Shown here piece after piece: positions 43,566 to 48,038 of a stretch of DNA of 64,000 nt; the first letter of the stretch is position 1, and every line of letters starts with the position of its first letter. The stretch covers positions 3,808,001 to 3,872,000 of the forward strand of contig OZ245033.1 of NCBI GenBank assembly GCA_965224025.1, given 5' to 3'. The position numbers were made by a program, and so were the translations under genes. A model generated the notes under the pieces. That model was given only the letters and a program-made list of their open reading frames with translations. It searched no databases and was not told where the DNA came from. This DNA comes from Candidatus Multivorans sp. (lineage in GTDB: Bacteria; Acidobacteriota; Thermoanaerobaculia; Multivoradales; Multivoraceae).

Positions 43566-45352
43566 TTGTCGCTGCGCAACACGGACACGAACGCTTCCTG
43601 GGGGATGTCGACGGAGCCGACGCGTTTCATGCGCTTCTTGCCCTCGCGCTGCTTCTCGAGCAGTTTGCGCTTGCGGGTGATGTCGCCGCCGTAGCACTTG
43701 GCGGTGACGTCCTTGCGGAAGGCGCCGATCGTGGTGCGGGCGATGATCTGACCGCCGATCGCCCCCTGGATGGCGATCTTGAACTGCTGGCGCGGGATCG
43801 TGTCCTTGAGGCGCTCGCAGTAGCGCAACGCCCGCCGCCGCGCCTTTTCCCGGTGCACGAGCTGCGACAGGGCATCGACCCGTTCGCCGTTGACGAGGAT
43901 GTCGACCTTGACCAGGTCCGTCACCCGTGACTCGATGAGTTCGTAGTCGAACGAGCCGTAGCCCTGGGTTACCGTCTTCAGGCGGTCGTAGAAGTCGAAG
44001 AGCACTTCGGCAAGCGGCAGTTCGCAGGTCAGTTCGACGCGTCCCACGGCCAGGTAGTGGATGTTCGTCTTGCCGCCGCGACGCTCCAGGCAGAGTTCCA
44101 TGACCGCCCCGAGGTAGCGCTCCGGCAGCATGATCGAGGCCTTGATGTACGGCTCGGCGACGGTCGCGATCTCGGAAGGGTCGGGATACGCCGACGGATT
44201 GTCGATCCGTCGCTTCGCGCCGTCCGACATCTCCACCAGGTACTGCACGGACGGCGCCGACAGCACCAGAGACAGCCCGTACTCGCGCTCCAGGCGCTCC
44301 TGCACCACGTCCAGGTGCAGCAGGCCCAGAAAGCCGCAGCGGAAGCCGAAGCCGAGGGCCGAGGACGAGTCCTTGTCGTAGGTCAGCGCTGCGTCGTTCA
44401 GAGCCAGCTTCTCGAGCGCGTGAGTCAGGTCCTCGTAGTTGTTGCTCGACACCGGGTAGATCGATGAGAAGACCACCGGCTTCGCCTCGCGATACCCGGG
44501 GATCGGTTCGACCGCGCCGTTCGCCGCGGTCGTGATCGTGTCGCCGATGTCGATTTCCGAGATGTTCCGGATCCCGGCGATCACGTAGCCCACCGCCCCG
44601 GCCTCCAGTTCCTCGGTCCGGCGCCGTTTGAGCAGCAGGGTCCCCACCTCCTCGACGTCGTGCTCGCTGCCGGTGTGCATCAGGCGCACCTTCTGCTTCG
44701 GCCGCAGAAGGCCGTCGCGCACCCGCACCAGCAGCACGACGCCGCGGTACGGGTCGTACTGGGCGTCGAACACCAGCGCCTTGAGCGGGGCTTCCAGCGT
44801 GCCCGACGGCGCCGGCAACCGGGCCGTGATCGCGTCCAAGACGTCCTCGACACCCTGGCCGGTCTTGGCCGAGCACTGCACCGCCTCGAACGGATCGAGC
44901 CCCAGGTCACTCTCGATCTCTTCCAGCACCCGGTCGACATCGGCAGAAGGAAGATCGATCTTGTTGATCACGGGAATGATCGCGAGGTCGTACTCGAGCG
45001 CCAGATAGAGGTTGGCTACTGTCTGCGCCTCCACTCCCTGGGAGGCGTCGATCAGCAGCAGCGCTCCTTCGCAGGACATGAGCGACCGCCGCACCTCGTG
45101 CGAGAAGTCGACATGGCCCGGCGTGTCGATCAGGTTCAAACGGCAGAGCCGGCCCTCGCCGTCGTGATGGCGCAGGGTGACCGTGTTGCTCTTGATCGTG
45201 ATCCCCCGCTCCCGTTCGATGTCCATCGAGTCCAGGATCTGGTCCCGAAACTGGCGATCCTCCACCGCGCCGCAGTGCTGGATCAGCCGGTCGGCAAGCG
45301 TCGACTTGCCGTGGTCGACGTGAGCGATGATGCAGAAGTTACGGACCGACAT
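43562..45352 (-). CDS. lepA: Elongation factor 4 (LepA)
   Basis: RNFCIIAHVDHGKSTLADR, ERERGITIK, GFRCGFLGLLH, AKCYGGDITRKRKLLEKQ. Confidence 0.97.
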   Translation of the reverse strand: MSVRNFCIIAHVDHGKSTLADRLIQHCGAVEDRQFRDQILDSMDIERERGITIKSNTVTLRHHDGEGRLCRLNLIDTPGHVDFSHEVRRSLMSCEGALLLIDASQGVEAQTVANLYLALEYDLAIIPVINKIDLPSADVDRVLEEIESDLGLDPFEAVQCSAKTGQGVEDVLDAITARLPAPSGTLEAPLKALVFDAQYDPYRGVVLLVRVRDGLLRPKQKVRLMHTGSEHDVEEVGTLLLKRRRTEELEAGAVGYVIAGIRNISEIDIGDTITTAANGAVEPIPGYREAKPVVFSSIYPVSSNNYEDLTHALEKLALNDAALTYDKDSSSALGFGFRCGFLGLLHLDVVQERLEREYGLSLVLSAPSVQYLVEMSDGAKRRIDNPSAYPDPSEIATVAEPYIKASIMLPERYLGAVMELCLERRGGKTNIHYLAVGRVELTCELPLAEVLFDFYDRLKTVTQGYGSFDYELIESRVTDLVKVDILVNGERVDALSQLVHREKARRRALRYCERLKDTIPRQQFKIAIQGAIGGQIIARTTIGAFRKDVTAKCYGGDITRKRKLLEKQREGKKRMKRVGSVDIPQEAFVSVLRSDN

Positions 45353-46733
45353 GGGCGCCCCGCATCCTATTGCGCCCGGCCCCGGGCCGGCATCTGCCAC
45401 CGCGTGCGCCTGCATCCGCCGCTGGGACTCTCCACCCTTTAGCAAATGTGTTTTGGGGAGGCTGCTGCGGGTCAGGGAGGTCATGCGACCTGGGCATGGC
45501 ATCGCTTGTTGGGGTCGAAGAGAGTCGGCCTCGGAGCATGGCGCAGGCGACGCCGAGGAGTCGGTCGACGAGTTGTCTGATGGCGCGTCCGTGCGTCTTT
45601 CCCTGGGCTTTCATGGCGTCGTACTTGGCGCGGCTGATCGGGTCGTGCTGGATGGCGACTCGTCCCCAGTGATAGACGGCGTCGCTGAGGTGTTCGTTGG
45701 CGGCGAGTCGTCGCATGACGATGAGCTTCTTGCCGGACTTGACGGTCACCGGCGCCACTCCGCAGAGGCAACGCAGTGCCTCGTGGTCTCTGCGGCCCAG
45801 GCTTTGATCGGCCTCGGAGAGCAGGGTGGCGAGGCCGACCTTGCCGAGTCCGGGCAGCGACCTGAGGATGGCGGCGTCGCTCGGCTTAGGGGAGTCGTCG
45901 TCGTTTTCCCGTTGGGCCGGGGCCTCGAGTGCGCGGGTCATCCGCTCCAGCCGCTTGTCGGCGTCGGCGAGTTGGCGGCAGACGGTGTCGAGCACCGGCC
46001 GGAGGAGTCCTATGTGTTCGACGGCGGCCTTAACGGTGTCCGGGGAAACGGCGATCGGCTCGGCCCGCAGTTGATCGCGCAGTTGGGCGGAGGTCAGGCG
46101 CCGGATGCGGTGTTCCTTGAGCAGTTTGGCGAGCGTGGCTTCGCGCAGCCGTCGAGCCTTGCCGGGGGTCGGCGCCAGTCGCCACAAGGCCAGCGCGAAG
46201 GGCGCCGACACCTCGTTCTTGACCACGGCGAGAAACTGCGGGTAGTAGCGCCAGAGCTGGTCGCGGACCTGGTTCTCCAGGCGGTTCTTCTGGCCGACCA
46301 ACTGCTTGCGGCCGCGGGACACCTCGCGCAGCATCACGATGGCGGCATCGGATGGTTGCACGCGGTTCAGGCACTCGGGGTCGGTGCGAAGCGCGGCGGC
46401 GAGCGCCCGTGCATCGCGGCGGTCATCCTTGGCGCCGGCGACGGAGAAGCGGTCCCTGAAGCGGTCGAGCTGCTTGGGGTTGATCGAATGCACGGCGAAG
46501 CCCCGCTCCAGGAGAGTCTCGACCACCGGTCCGTGCGGCACCTCGATGGCGACGCCGATCTCGTCCGGAGACGTCGGTCGGGTATGTCCAAGGAGCCAGT
46601 CGGCCATGGCGGCAAGTCCCTTGCCGCTGTGGTCGAACGCCCGCTCCCCCCTCACCTTGCCGTCCCGATCCAGCACACACACGTGGTGGGTCTCGGACCC
46701 CCAGTCCACGCCGGCGAACCACGTCCTGGTCAT
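45339..46733 (-). CDS. IS110 DEDD recombinase/transposase, apparently frameshifted near the C-terminus
   Basis: FAGVDWG (D), AIE (E), KDDRRDA (D,D), APVTVKSG (Ser); GGAGG RBS. An alternative frame gives TLFDPNKRCHAQVA* ending at 45481. Confidence 0.9.
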   Translation of the reverse strand: MTRTWFAGVDWGSETHHVCVLDRDGKVRGERAFDHSGKGLAAMADWLLGHTRPTSPDEIGVAIEVPHGPVVETLLERGFAVHSINPKQLDRFRDRFSVAGAKDDRRDARALAAALRTDPECLNRVQPSDAAIVMLREVSRGRKQLVGQKNRLENQVRDQLWRYYPQFLAVVKNEVSAPFALALWRLAPTPGKARRLREATLAKLLKEHRIRRLTSAQLRDQLRAEPIAVSPDTVKAAVEHIGLLRPVLDTVCRQLADADKRLERMTRALEAPAQRENDDDSPKPSDAAILRSLPGLGKVGLATLLSEADQSLGRRDHEALRCLCGVAPVTVKSGKKLIVMRRLAANEHLSDAVYHWGRVAIQHDPISRAKYDAMKAQGKTHGRAIRQLVDRLLGVACAMLRGRLSSTPTSDAMPRSHDLPDPQQPPQNTFAKGWRVPAADAGARGGRCRPGAGRNRMRGAHVGP

Positions 46734-47044
46734 CTCGTCCTCCTTCTCCCTTGCGGTAGTGTTGCCTGGTCGGCATGCCGCGTTGCCTGCCCGTACCTGT
46801 ACTGGTGCTCTAAGGCACTGACTCTCCACTGGGCGTCCAACGCGGCGAAGCAGCCAGGGCACGGGTCCCAGCCAGGTGCTCGAAGCACAGTGCGCCGGTG
46901 GTTGCTCCTGGCTGCTTGCCGACTTTCCTTCAGTGACTCCGGCAGGCCGGAGACGCAACCGACCGGCGGTCTCGGCTGCGGAAGCTGCCGGTCCATTCCA
47001 CCTCTCTCAACGACACGCCAGAATGCATCCCGGAAAGGTACAGG
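45425..47044 (-). mobile_element. IS110-family element (IS110 group, non-coding end upstream of the recombinase), CC core at both junctions
   Basis: Minus-strand junctions GGCGTA|CC|TGTACC and GGAGAGT|CC|CAGC; no terminal inverted repeats; DEDD recombinase inside. Confidence 0.9.
46778..47028 (-). ncRNA. Predicted bridge RNA of the IS110 element
   Basis: 5' stem-loops, a target-binding loop closed by AAGCAGCCAGG/CCTGGCTGCTT, and a donor-binding loop closed by CCGCGTTG/CAACGCGG. Guide segments match the junctions. Ends approximate. Confidence 0.85.
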
Positions 47045-47126
47045 TACGCCGGCCTCCGGCCGGCATCCGCCGAAGGCGGAATCCGGAACAACCACCTCGA
47101 CCTGGGAGTTGCTAACTTCCCACACC

Positions 47127-48038
47127 ATGTCCACCCCCGCCGCAGCCGCACAGACCACCATCCGCATCGTCGGCGCGCCGCTCGACCTCGGCCAGGCGCG
47201 CCGCGGCGTCGACCTGGGACCGACCGCGCTCCGCTACGCGGGTCTCAAGTCCGCCCTGAGGCGACTCGGCTACCGGGTCGAGGACCGGGGCAACATCGAG
47301 ACCGTCGAGCGGGACACACTGCCCGAGGAACCCGGCCTGGGTTTCCTGCAACCGGTCGTCGACGCCTGCGAGCACATCTACGAGGCCAGCCGGCAGGCGG
47401 TGGCCGAGGGCGCCGTGCCGCTGGTGCTCGGCGGCGACCACTCGATCGCCGTCGGCACCGTCGGCGGCGTCTCGCACGAGCACCGCACAGGCGTCCTCTG
47501 GATCGACGCCCACGGCGACTTCAACACCCCGGACACCTCTCCGACCGGCAACCTCCACGGCATGCCCCTCGCCGCCCTGTGCGGACACGGCGCATCGGAA
47601 CTGGTCGATGCCGGTCGCCCCGGCGCCAAGCTCCGGGCCGAGGACGTCGTCCTCTTCGGCGTCCGCGACCTCGATCCCGGCGAGCAGGCCCTGATCCAGC
47701 AGGCCGGCATCACCACCTACACGATGCGCCAGATCGACGAGCGAGGGCTGGCGCCGGTCGCCGCCGAGGCTCTCGAAGGCCTGGGCCACGTGGACCGGAT
47801 CCACGTCAGCCTGGACATGGACTCGATCGATCCCCATGAGGCCCCAGGCGTCGGCACGCAGGTGCCCGGCGGCCTGAGCTACCGCGAAGGCCACCTGCTG
47901 ATGGAACTGATCGCCGAGCACGGGAGCATCGGCTCCGTCGACGTGGTCGAAGTGAACCCGATCCTCGACACCCGCAACCAGACCGCGAAGCTCGCGCTCG
48001 GTCTGTTGAGCTCCCTCTTCGGCCGCAGCATCCTGTAA
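47127..48038 (+). CDS. rocF: Arginase
   Basis: RRGVDLGP, LGGDHSIA, WIDAHGDFNTP, GNLHGMP, SLDMDSIDP, VEVNP. Confidence 0.92.
   Translation: MSTPAAAAQTTIRIVGAPLDLGQARRGVDLGPTALRYAGLKSALRRLGYRVEDRGNIETVERDTLPEEPGLGFLQPVVDACEHIYEASRQAVAEGAVPLVLGGDHSIAVGTVGGVSHEHRTGVLWIDAHGDFNTPDTSPTGNLHGMPLAALCGHGASELVDAGRPGAKLRAEDVVLFGVRDLDPGEQALIQQAGITTYTMRQIDERGLAPVAAEALEGLGHVDRIHVSLDMDSIDPHEAPGVGTQVPGGLSYREGHLLMELIAEHGSIGSVDVVEVNPILDTRNQTAKLALGLLSSLFGRSIL

Follow-up and report, generated by a model that had tools for sequence, protein, structure and literature searches.

The bridge RNA/recombinase type of system has been known since 2024 (Durrant et al., PMC11208160; Hiraizumi et al., PMC11208158). According to the structural account of IS621 (PMC11208158), residues D11, E60, D102, D105 and S241 have catalytic roles, and the backbone of G63 reads the T at the second core position, which is described as "almost invariant" among IS621 and closely related elements. 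ISCro4 is reported to be a close relative of IS621 that has a CT core and is active in human cells (bioRxiv 10.1101/2025.05.14.653916). For ISPpu10 from Pseudomonas putida, many identical REP copies are reported as targets, along with a junction promoter that drives the bridge RNA (bioRxiv 10.64898/2026.03.19.712850). Elements of the IS1111 group are described as carrying the RNA in the right end and long subterminal inverted repeats (PMC11208160). Bridge RNAs have already been predicted for most elements of the family, and the element described here is one more member.

This element is an IS110-group insertion sequence of approximately 1.6 kb that occupies positions 47044-45425 on the minus strand of the window (the whole 64,000-nt stretch analyzed here, from contig OZ245033.1 of Candidatus Multivorans sp.; all coordinates are positions in this window). 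It is very probably a copy that encodes a DEDD/serine bridge recombinase together with a bridge RNA located in its left end (Table 1). The left end is about 310 nt long vs about 55 nt for the right end, and the element has no long terminal inverted repeats. The 5.14-Mb genome contains 14 full copies with 97-100% identity, all at one type of REP-like site; decayed or interrupted copies are present as well. The CC dinucleotide, which the earlier note on this DNA had proposed as the core, is found at both junctions in all 14 copies and is the only sequence common to target and donor at the junctions in this genome. With these copies and 43 further candidate sites (see below), the element appears to be an active shaper of the host genome. 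By eye, the translations of the flanking genes suggest an arginase-like candidate upstream and a LepA/EF4-like candidate downstream.

Table 1. Features of the element, its predicted left-end RNA and its target (window coordinates)
Feature	Position	Strand	Basis or remark
Left target half (LT) CCGGCGTA	47045..47052	-	14/14 copies follow GGCG[C/T]A
Left copy of CC core (putative crossover dinucleotide)	47043..47044	-	read directly
Right donor half TGTAC	47042-47038	-	reverse complement of right donor guide
-10-like TACCTT	47040-47035	-	overlaps right donor half TGTAC
REP-like hairpin GCCGGCC-GGA-GGCCGGC	47048..47064	-	host DNA; 3' arm overlaps left target half
5' domain of left end, shortened here	46918..47037	-	comparison with other copies
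Target-binding loop module	46848..46917	-	read directly; fold; stem and guide covariation
Target loop closing stem, 11 bp	46917-46907 / 46858-46848	-	two further pairs beyond 1-nt bulge
Left target guide CCGGCGCAC	46898-46890	-	8/9 match; guide C vs target T at 46892; then U at 46889
Target loop hairpin GTGCTTCGAGCAC	46888-46876	-	
Right target guide GCTGGG	46872-46867	-	then handshake bases AC at 46866-46865
Donor-binding loop module including closing stem	46777..46846	-	read directly; fold; covariation
Left donor guide GTGGAGAGTC	46829-46820	-	10/10 match
Donor loop hairpin	46818-46805	-	
Right donor guide GTACAGG	46802-46796	-	7/7 match; then handshake bases TA at 46795-46794
Shine-Dalgarno AAGGAGG	46745-46739	-	read directly
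Recombinase ATG start	46733-46731	-	start position conserved in relatives
Recombinase gene, 464 codons in window copy	45339..46733	-	translation; Pfam; residue alignment
Right end of element	45427..45480	-	with -35-like TTGCTA and left donor half GTGGAGAGT
-35-like TTGCTA	45445-45440	-	right end
Left donor half GTGGAGAGT	45435-45427	-	within right end
Right copy of CC core	45425..45426	-	read directly
Right target half (RT) CAGC	45421..45424	-	reverse complement of non-core part of right target guide
Window target CCGGCGTA-CC-CAGC		-	reconstructed; flanks read directly
Donor (joined element ends) GTGGAGAGT-CC-TGTAC		-	reconstructed from both ends
General REP-like host site GGCCGGCG(C/T)A-CC-CAG(C/T)			
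Target form CCGGCGCA-CC-CAGT			named as partner of donor GTGGAGAGT-CC-TGTAC

Direct reading of the minus strand places every guide, stem, hairpin and flank listed in the earlier note where it had put them, and its reconstruction of target and donor is correct base for base. The left end carries a predicted two-loop bridge-RNA layout in which the target-binding module precedes the donor-binding module. The minimum-free-energy fold of the whole left end is unexceptional (z = -1.67); structural support comes from comparison with relatives. A scan of the window left end and of a full-length left end against Rfam 15 yields only chance-level matches far below the gathering scores, and a plasmid search yields 14 distant matches with 60-80% identity, which are labelled only "IS110 family transposase" and carry no element name.

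The comparison covered 80 related loci, mostly from Acidobacteriota. From the 94 elements examined, 89 were parsed, and the 76 elements with both flanks that were counted represent 19 guide combinations and 59 distinct sites. The counts leave aside L072 (disrupted left end) and L107 (no donor loop), both unparsed; L090, L097 and L104, also unparsed, in which the guides are visible by eye; ten loci with no recognisable right end in the fetched flank; and L105, which has no left flank. At cognate sites, the mean exact match is 6.2 nt for the left guide and 3.8 nt for the right one, compared to 2.7 and 1.3 nt, respectively, in 3,114 non-cognate pairings. The guide-by-site matrix is block-diagonal and comprises 7 target classes, all 7 of which have CC as the core; the guides change together with the flanks, which is the covariation that the earlier note had proposed to look for. 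In 2 of 78 insertions (L085 and L088), the right flank is not predicted by the right target guide. These two were considered as tandem copies with natural joined junctions, a reading that was rejected given that the sequence past their right ends is unrelated to the left end. On the donor side, the right ends change in step with the left donor guide where the latter varies between G and A (GTGGAGAGT, GTGGGAAGT, GTGGGGAGT).

Across 22 sequences, the 31 stem pairs of the two modules are 98.8% paired, and 11 of them show compensatory changes on both sides, including 7 of the 12 pairs of helix 1, in the target loop. None of 500 shuffles reaches the observed pairing or covariation, and sliding the registers by 1-3 columns reduces pairing to 27.6-42.7%. 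Several stem pairs alternate G-C with G-U, which fits an RNA transcribed from the recombinase-sense strand. At 58 of the 59 sites, the base directly following the right donor guide is the Watson-Crick complement of the target -1 base, with three different base pairs represented, and the base directly following the right target guide is complementary to the donor -1 base at all 59; pairing of these bases with the site of their own loop is seen at 0 and 1 of the 59 sites. The predicted handshake bases behave as in the IS621 model. These data bear out the IS621-like layout, the handshake guides and the CC core claimed in the earlier note, and with them every part of its inference that computation can address.

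The target is part of a repeated host structure. All 14 copies sit between GGCG[C/T]A-CC and CC-C[A/G]G[C/T], and the genome contains 43 unoccupied CCGGCGYACCCAGY sites vs 1.3 expected from base composition. A hairpin of the type found next to the window copy precedes most of these 43 sites and the other occupied sites. Among the 14 copies, whether the left target guide has C or T is unrelated to whether the occupied site has C or T (Fisher p = 0.58), and the left target guide of the window copy forms a C.A mismatch with its own site. T-sites account for 4 of the 14 occupied and 3 of the 43 unoccupied sites, a borderline difference (p = 0.054) from which no enrichment is claimed.

A search for a natural joined right-end/left-end junction found none, and in four contig-type sequencing runs aligned to the window the right end is nowhere joined to the left end. 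One contig in X2 and X3 connects 45381 with 47121 through 32 other letters. Its aligned side is about 89% like the window. It is read only as the corresponding region of a related organism, with a spacer that contains neither REP-like repeats nor the element, and not as a precise empty site.

The ends of the element include candidate promoter boxes. Joining the ends puts TACCYT 17 nt past the -35-like hexamer of the right end, and nearly all of the 31 distinct junctions listed contain CTTGC[A/T]A or TTGACA at a fixed distance, followed after 17 nt by TACCYT (L105, for which the parser mis-set the left-end position, has no TACCYT box). The junction promoter of the window copy matches 7 of 12 consensus positions, which is below the scan threshold, and a promoter scan of the linear element found none. 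Between the core and the target loop, the Thermoanaerobaculia lineage has a nearly invariant double-hairpin 5' module of about 110-130 nt. The window copy lacks 91 nt at about 46990-46995 compared to 11 of the 13 other full copies (90 nt compared to c534). Core and target loop are 136 nt apart here; the spacing is 226-227 nt in 12 copies, and one copy has 148 nt. In the module, which otherwise hardly varies, the deletion takes away one of the two strands of the outer helix. Relatives from Vicinamibacterales lack the module altogether and have only 57-59 nt in its place. The longer 5' domain noted earlier is what is left, in the window copy, of this lineage-specific module, which does not extend to the whole clade. 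The same module also occurs in IS21-family elements of these genomes, where it lies immediately inside the ends and likewise faces inward. It could be an exchangeable structured unit that controls how transcription enters an insertion sequence, or how stable the guide RNA is or how it is processed. It was also considered as a terminator, which is not claimed because a terminator scan of the module found none.

The gene downstream of the left end encodes an IS110-family DEDD/Tnp recombinase with a fold like that of the IS621 recombinase. The protein matches pfam profiles PF01548 (E = 4.2e-33) and PF02371 (E = 1.1e-12), and scores 174.3 bits against NCBIfam NF033542, "IS110 family RNA-guided transposase" (cutoff 140). 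A phmmer search against PDB sequences identifies IS621 (8wt6, E = 8.9e-10) and ISCro4 (9t56, E = 8.5e-8), and a search for protein homologues returns no informative names. Residues D10, E64, D104, D107 and S333 align to D11, E60, D102, D105 and S241 of IS621 and are invariant in 31 proteins of the clade. The AlphaFold model has a pLDDT of 86.6, with the last predicted helix at 381-402. Its best PDB match is to IS621 chains (E = 2.7e-12, TM-score by target length 0.70, 20% identity), and the best 10 Foldseek matches are all chains of IS621 and ISCro4 (E from 2.7e-12 to 5.1e-11, TM-score by target length 0.69-0.72). The loop past the catalytic glutamate has the form E-(V/T)-P-x-G-P in the clade and aligns 3 residues shorter than in IS621. 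At the second core position, where T is read by IS621-type enzymes, this remodelled and shorter loop may be what requires C.

By analogy with the IS621 literature, from which transcription, RNA-protein binding, the circular intermediate and catalysis at CC are all extrapolated, the element would move as follows. The first internal loop of the RNA would pair with both strands of the REP-like host site and the second with the junction formed when the excised element circularizes, GTGGAGAGT-CC-TGTAC, whereupon a recombinase tetramer would swap strands at the common CC dinucleotide. The two handshake bases past each right guide would engage the partner DNA only once the first strands have been exchanged. 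Joining of the ends would also unite the -35-like box of the right end with the -10-like box of the left end, and these together would drive expression of both the RNA and the recombinase.

Two other readings of the left end have to be weighed against a bridge RNA. The guide matches might be chance similarity in GC-rich sequence and, indeed, individual short GC-rich guides are not rare when the 309-nt left end is shuffled 20,000 times by mononucleotide: 1,500 shuffles contain the left target guide (at least 8/9) and 3,784 the right target guide. The right donor guide appears in 464. The left donor guide at 10/10, however, appears in only 14, and both target guides at the right spacing in 29. 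The joint chance of the guide matches is about 1e-8 (assuming independence), and the pattern is thus far beyond chance; moreover, it recurs with different sequences in the 7 target classes, and an origin by chance is extremely improbable. Alternatively, the structure could be a leader or a DNA-level binding site of the recombinase, in which case the protein would choose the target and the matches would be subterminal repeats. Compatible with this possibility, the RNA is so far only predicted here, and the donor-side guides are nearly invariant among the relatives, so that on their own they cannot tell an RNA guide from repeated protein-binding sites. Nevertheless, the sequences matched by the target guides lie in host DNA, beyond the element, and guides and host DNA vary together from class to class, the stems show compensatory changes and strand-specific G-U pairs, the handshake base tracks the target -1 base, and bridge RNA is present in solved structures of the homologous IS621 and ISCro4 proteins. 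Given these observations, a leader or DNA site appears highly unlikely, and the bridge RNA remains the preferred interpretation.

A separate question concerns the competence of the window copy, in which the two-loop RNA core is intact, the 5' domain is shortened and the recombinase tail is frameshifted. A -1 frameshift at about 45524/45525, after codon 402, replaces the conserved 14-residue tail TLFDPNKRCHAQVA; the shifted frame reads through the right end into host DNA, with the canonical stop at 45483-45481 out of frame. As a result, the window recombinase lacks the conserved F-D-P tail, including D407, which is at least 90% conserved in the 31 proteins. The frameshift is common to 3 of the 14 copies, and 10 of the 14 have the intact 417-aa frame. 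The chances appear about even that the window copy is decaying and non-autonomous, with an RNA that may work and an impaired recombinase, and moves only when protein and RNA are supplied in trans. Along with the lost tail, the deletion that breaks the outer helix of the 5' module and the mismatch between the left target guide and its own site are compatible with this possibility, and ISPpu10 is reported to act in trans (bioRxiv 10.64898/2026.03.19.712850). Conversely, the catalytic residues and the last predicted helix are intact, and the tail may be dispensable, since the model assigns it low confidence (pLDDT below 50 for residues 411-417). Furthermore, three copies at different sites share the same frameshift, which suggests that this variant transposed, in cis or in trans, and the Vicinamibacterales relatives do without any 5' module. 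The window copy may rely on the 10 copies of this genome that are intact. Non-autonomy is compatible with the assignment of the element to the bridge-RNA class and weakens only the candidacy of this particular copy.

Bridge recombinases are under development as programmable tools for DNA insertion, inversion and excision. In dual-bridge-RNA editing, orthogonal cores are reported to remove cross-reactions, and a GT core is reported to cost IS621 efficiency (bioRxiv 10.64898/2026.04.29.721476). A natural CC clade would be useful because orthogonal cores stop cross-reactions, while the GT core lowers the efficiency of IS621. The seven natural target specificities show which guide positions are free to change, and the loop at the place where IS621 reads the core is distinct. 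An orthogonal enzyme could be drawn from this clade, and the determinants of core preference studied in it. The broader proposition that the acidobacterial clade is a naturally orthogonal branch of bridge recombinases, defined by a core-setting Glu loop and an exchangeable 5' module in Thermoanaerobaculia, is tentative and rather unlikely to hold in full. The literature search returned no paper on an IS110 bridge RNA in Acidobacteriota and none on a CC core with bridge RNA, although the supplementary tables of Durrant et al., which cover thousands of IS110 elements, may list the clade.

Among the closest described systems, IS621 from Escherichia coli has the following in common with this element: the RuvC-like DEDD domain and the Tnp domain with the catalytic serine, and the fold; a left-end RNA (here predicted) with the target loop followed by the donor loop; in each loop, a left guide in the sense of the top strand and a right guide in reverse complement, with handshake bases behind the latter; a core of two nucleotides; and a target of the REP type. 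The candidate -35-like and -10-like boxes of the present element are split over the joined ends, as the promoter boxes of IS621 are. In contrast, protein identity is only about 20%, and the protein studied here comprises 417 aa vs the 305-328 residues of the solved IS621 chains, with about 90 extra residues between two aligned blocks (131-261 correspond to chain positions 132-171), a region that in the model includes a helical insert (165-222) flanked by two long helices. Unlike in IS621, the right target guide spans the core and 4-5 nt more, and the 5' domain in this lineage is much longer. IS622/ISCro4 from Citrobacter rodentium (PDB 9t56) belongs to the same family, with the same fold and the same loop and handshake nomenclature, and shows about 18% protein identity. 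In ISPpu10, the target adjoins a GC-rich REP stem-loop, which resembles the overlap of the left target half with the 3' arm of the REP-like hairpin here. The IS1111 group (seekRNA or right-end bridge RNA) has in common the recombinase family and the RNA-guided principle, but the predicted RNA of the present element is in the left end. The CT core that characterizes the IS621-like subgroup (IS621, ISCro4 and ISPpu10) is replaced by CC in every target class of this clade. The system belongs to a class that is already well known, and the lineage differs from these characterised members by a CC rather than a CT core.

Minus-strand reading of window positions 45200-47400 finds all the ends, flanks, guides and the stem of the bridge RNA that the earlier note had placed at 46778-47044, with the same coordinates (see the table). 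Two modules, each with a stem, an internal loop and a hairpin, lie between the left junction and the recombinase gene. The bases that follow the right guides, AC and TA, complement those that precede the core in the opposite partner (GT in the donor, TA in the target). With the 309-nt left end shuffled 20,000 times, the left donor 10-mer turns up in 14 shuffles, the correctly spaced target pair in 29 and the right donor 7-mer in 464, which gives a joint chance of about 1e-8 if independence is assumed; single short GC-rich guides are not rare among these shuffles.

Features of the element, its target classes and the 5' module (G000:C1, contig of the window's own genome; other positions are in the window)
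Feature	Sequence	Position	Strand	Remark
Recombinase ORF		ATG at 46733	minus	PF01548 (E 4.2e-33) and PF02371 (E 1.1e-12), Pfam IS110-family transposase domains
Left host flank	CCGGCGTA	47052-47045	minus	direct reading
Left core	CC	47044-47043	minus	then TGTAC
Right end of element	GTGGAGAGT	45435-45427	minus	direct reading
Right core	CC	45426-45425	minus	then CAGC
Target-loop closing stem, 11 bp		46917-46907 / 46858-46848	minus	first module
Left target guide	CCGGCGCAC	46898-46890	minus	8/9 match to left flank and first core base
Right target guide	GCTGGG	46872-46867	minus	reverse complement of CC+CAGC
Left donor guide	GTGGAGAGTC	46829-46820	minus	10/10 match; second module
Right donor guide	GTACAGG	46802-46796	minus	reverse complement of CC+TGTAC
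Target class 1	GCCGGCGYA-CC-CAGY			also CGGT, with guide CCGGG
Target class 2	GGGGTC-CC-TTTTC
Target class 3	GCGATC-CC-ATTTG
Target class 4	GTGGACG-CC-TCCCC
Target class 5	GTGATAGC-CC-TTGTC
Target class 6	TTCGTC-CC-CTCCC
Target class 7	AAGCGGAT-CC-ACTTG
5' module, intact IS110 copy		G000:C1:743531-743644		deleted in window at ~46990-46995
5' module, other places in own genome		G000:C1:4048798-4048895, 3672598-3672706, 2474161-2474267, 1301957-1302035, 3408859-3408901

A search limited to one genome per species yields 80 related loci (55-91% protein identity). Their record titles name Candidatus Multivorans, which is a genus in the acidobacteriotal class Thermoanaerobaculia, further Thermoanaerobaculia and many Vicinamibacterales, besides isolated records such as Azospirillum and a gammaproteobacterium. 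Together with the 14 copies from the window's own genome, 94 elements were examined; loops were parsed by regular expressions and the ends of each element were located from its own donor guides, with 89 elements parsed and 78 having both flanks inside the fetched DNA. Two loci of relatives with the right flank TGTAC (L085 and L088) were left out of the count; the remaining 76 elements comprise 59 distinct sites and 19 combinations of guides. On average, a guide matches its cognate flank exactly over 6.2 nt on the left side and 3.8 nt on the right side, versus 2.7 and 1.3 nt for 3,114 non-cognate pairings, and the matrix of guides against sites falls into diagonal blocks that define seven target classes. 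Guides and targets covary across insertion sites, the check proposed in the earlier note. The left donor guide varies in step with the right end of the element (GTGGAGAGT, GTGGGAAGT, GTGGGGAGT). Given that, in every class, target and donor share CC and nothing else, the core is CC throughout the clade; CC is also found at both junctions of the window copy, in agreement with the earlier claim of a core other than the CT of IS621.

Several loci of relatives fall outside this count. An eighth left half, AAGGAGCC-CC, was seen by eye in L090 and L097, outside the parsed set. In L085 (3087-3110) and L088 (2910-2935), 2 of the 78 insertions with two flanks, the right flank starts with TGTAC, the element's own right donor half, against the prediction from the right target guide; these recall a half-match insertion that a 2026 preprint mentions in its abstract. 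In L072 (1298-1457, Vicinamibacterales), the 5' half of the target loop is replaced by unrelated sequence and the donor loop is kept, a disrupted left end.

An alignment of 22 distinct two-loop regions yields a consensus structure of two closing stems and two hairpins, with pairing in 98.8% of cells over 31 pairs and changes on both sides in 11 pairs. In 500 shuffles, neither the pairing nor the covariation seen in the alignment is ever reached, and sliding the partners by 1-3 columns lowers pairing to 27.6-42.7%. Several pairs alternate between G-C and G-U, which is possible only on the recombinase-sense strand and so supports a transcript of that strand. The covariance model built from this alignment of homologous left ends, as the earlier note had suggested, matches 16 places in the own genome, namely all 14 full copies, the left end of a split copy and a remnant, and has matches in 3 of 150 other sampled Acidobacteriota genomes. 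The base directly following the right donor guide is Watson-Crick complementary to the target -1 base at 58 of 59 sites and makes a wobble pair at the remaining one; three pair types occur (U with A, G with C, C with G). The next base pairs at 18 of 59 sites only. Behind the right target guide, the two bases complement the invariant GT of the donor at 59 and 58 of 59 sites, versus 0 and 1 of 59 for handshake bases against the loop's own site. The same pattern is known from IS621, in which RNA positions 81 and 166 covary with partner-DNA position 7 (PMC11208158).

The recombinase is assigned to the NCBIfam equivalog "IS110 family RNA-guided transposase" (174.3 bits, cutoff 140), and a phmmer search against PDB sequences matches only IS621 (8wt6, E 8.9e-10) and ISCro4 (9t56, E 8.5e-8). 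Chains of the same two proteins are the best structural matches of the AlphaFold model of an intact copy (pLDDT 86.6), with E down to 2.7e-12, a TM-score by target length of about 0.70 and 18-20% identity. Residues D10, E64, D104, D107 and S333, invariant across 31 clade proteins, align with D11, E60, D102, D105 and S241 of IS621. Compared with IS621, the recombinase has about 90 extra residues between two aligned blocks, modelled as a helical insert (165-222) with long helices on either side. The loop after the catalytic glutamate also differs: it reads E-(V/T)-P-x-G-P, with invariant P66, G68 and P69, and aligns 3 residues shorter than E60-A61-T62-G63 of IS621, where the T of the CT core is recognised through the G63 backbone and A61 sits close to core position 1 (PMC11208158). 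The shorter loop may be linked to the CC core.

The assembly that holds the window (5.14 Mb, 67.6% GC) contains 14 full-length copies at 97-100% identity, one copy in two pieces and one left-end remnant. All 14 copies are flanked by ...GGCG(C/T)A-CC on the left and CC-C(A/G)G(C/T)... on the right, with the 3' arm of a REP-like hairpin (GCCGGC..GGA..GCCGGC) reaching into the left target half. A further 43 occurrences of the 14-mer CCGGCGYACCCAGY are uninterrupted, versus 1.3 expected from base composition, nearly all in the same hairpin context, which indicates that the element is site-specific for a repeated extragenic palindrome, also the target of IS621 and ISPpu10 (PMC11208160; bioRxiv 10.64898/2026.03.19.712850). 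The remnant (G000:C1:4322368-4322525, minus strand; 151.8 bits with the covariance model) retains both loops, lacks the recombinase gene and the 5' part of the left end, and has the right donor guide mutated to GTGCAGG. The split copy (G000:C1:13083-13643 and 5044248-5045405) is broken at about codon 50 of the recombinase, the pieces being 15,352 bp apart if the contig is circular; the DNA inside ends in TCGGTTnGTGCGAGAAA-type inverted repeats, with further GTGCGAGA repeats, which suggests that a second transposon has inserted into the IS.

Core and target loop are 57-59 nt apart in Vicinamibacterales relatives, enough to accommodate one 5' stem-loop of the kind that IS621 has, and 214-227 nt apart in the Thermoanaerobaculia lineage. 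The longer 5' domain claimed earlier is, in the window copy, a remnant of sequence specific to the latter lineage and no trait of the whole clade. This additional sequence is an almost invariant module of about 110-130 nt, in which an outer helix (GGCUGCGG/CCGCAGCC) encloses two A-tract/U-tract hairpins; because it barely varies, covariation within IS110 copies says little. Five other places in the own genome carry it at 88-91% identity, each just inside an IS21-type end with repeated GGAAAGTGAGCC motifs, one of them beside an IstB gene (PF01695, E 2.6e-77). The module points inward in both contexts, between which one helix differs by compensatory changes (GGUCC/GGACC vs GGCG/CGCC). It is present in 2 of 5 same-genus genomes, at two IS110 left ends, one IS21 end and one other context, and in 0 of roughly 295 other sampled Acidobacteriota genomes. 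A terminator scan finds no canonical terminator in the module.

In the window copy, the core-to-target-loop distance is 136 nt, versus 226-227 nt for 12 of the others and 148 nt for the remaining one, and the missing 91 nt lie between short GGACC-like repeats. Its codons 401-403 read GGC CGA CTC, where the 11 non-frameshifted copies encode D-R-T; through the loss of one base the tail TLFDPNKRCHAQVA is replaced and the reading frame extends to 45339 (464 codons). The recombinase tail of orthologues has a conserved F/Y-D-P. Three copies, this one included, share the frameshift, one has a stop at codon 27 and 10 are intact (417 aa). The left target guide has C against T in its own site, a C.A mismatch found in 2 of the 14 copies; three others have U opposite G and nine match exactly. 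The two-loop RNA core is intact. Other copies are probably better suited to a test than the one in the window. The guide position at 46892 is polymorphic on the minus strand (C in 9 and T in 5 of 14 copies), with the T form in contigs of runs X1-X3, contig-type sequencing runs compared with the window; among the 14 copies the guide C/T does not track the C/T polymorphism of the target site (p = 0.58). The copy occupies the spacer (flanking parts 45352-45420 and 47053-47130) between an arginase-like gene in divergent orientation and a LepA/EF4-like gene, both named by eye; this spacer also holds further REP-like hairpins; in contigs of a related organism (runs X2/X3) this spacer is 32 nt, without REP-like repeats or the IS.

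Once the ends are joined, CTTGC(A/T)A at the right end, TTGACA in some elements, precedes TACC(T/C)T at the left end by 17 nt in nearly all of 31 distinct junction reconstructions; L105, a relative whose left-end position was mis-set by the parser, has no TACCYT box. This split -35/-10-like arrangement corresponds to the junction promoter in IS621 and ISPpu10, and the joined ends may act as a promoter. The predicted junction promoter of the window copy matches the sigma-70 consensus at 7 of 12 positions, and a promoter scan of the linear element finds none.

The comparative evidence supports the earlier reading of an IS621-like bridge RNA with handshake guides; the architecture, and probably the mechanism, match those of IS110-group bridge RNA systems. 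The class is established, given that bridge RNAs are predicted in 85.7% of catalogued IS110 elements (Durrant et al., PMC11208160). A search of the literature, as distinct from supplementary element catalogues and ISfinder, finds no paper that links a CC core to bridge RNAs or that reports IS110 bridge RNAs from Acidobacteriota. Useful features of the clade are its CC core, its seven natural specificities and its larger recombinase; the 5' module shared with IS21-type elements is an addition to the known architecture. The second-position core T is described as almost invariant in IS621 and related orthologues (PMC11208158), and the characterised members compared, IS621, IS622/ISCro4 and ISPpu10, have CT cores, whereas the core of the present clade is CC.
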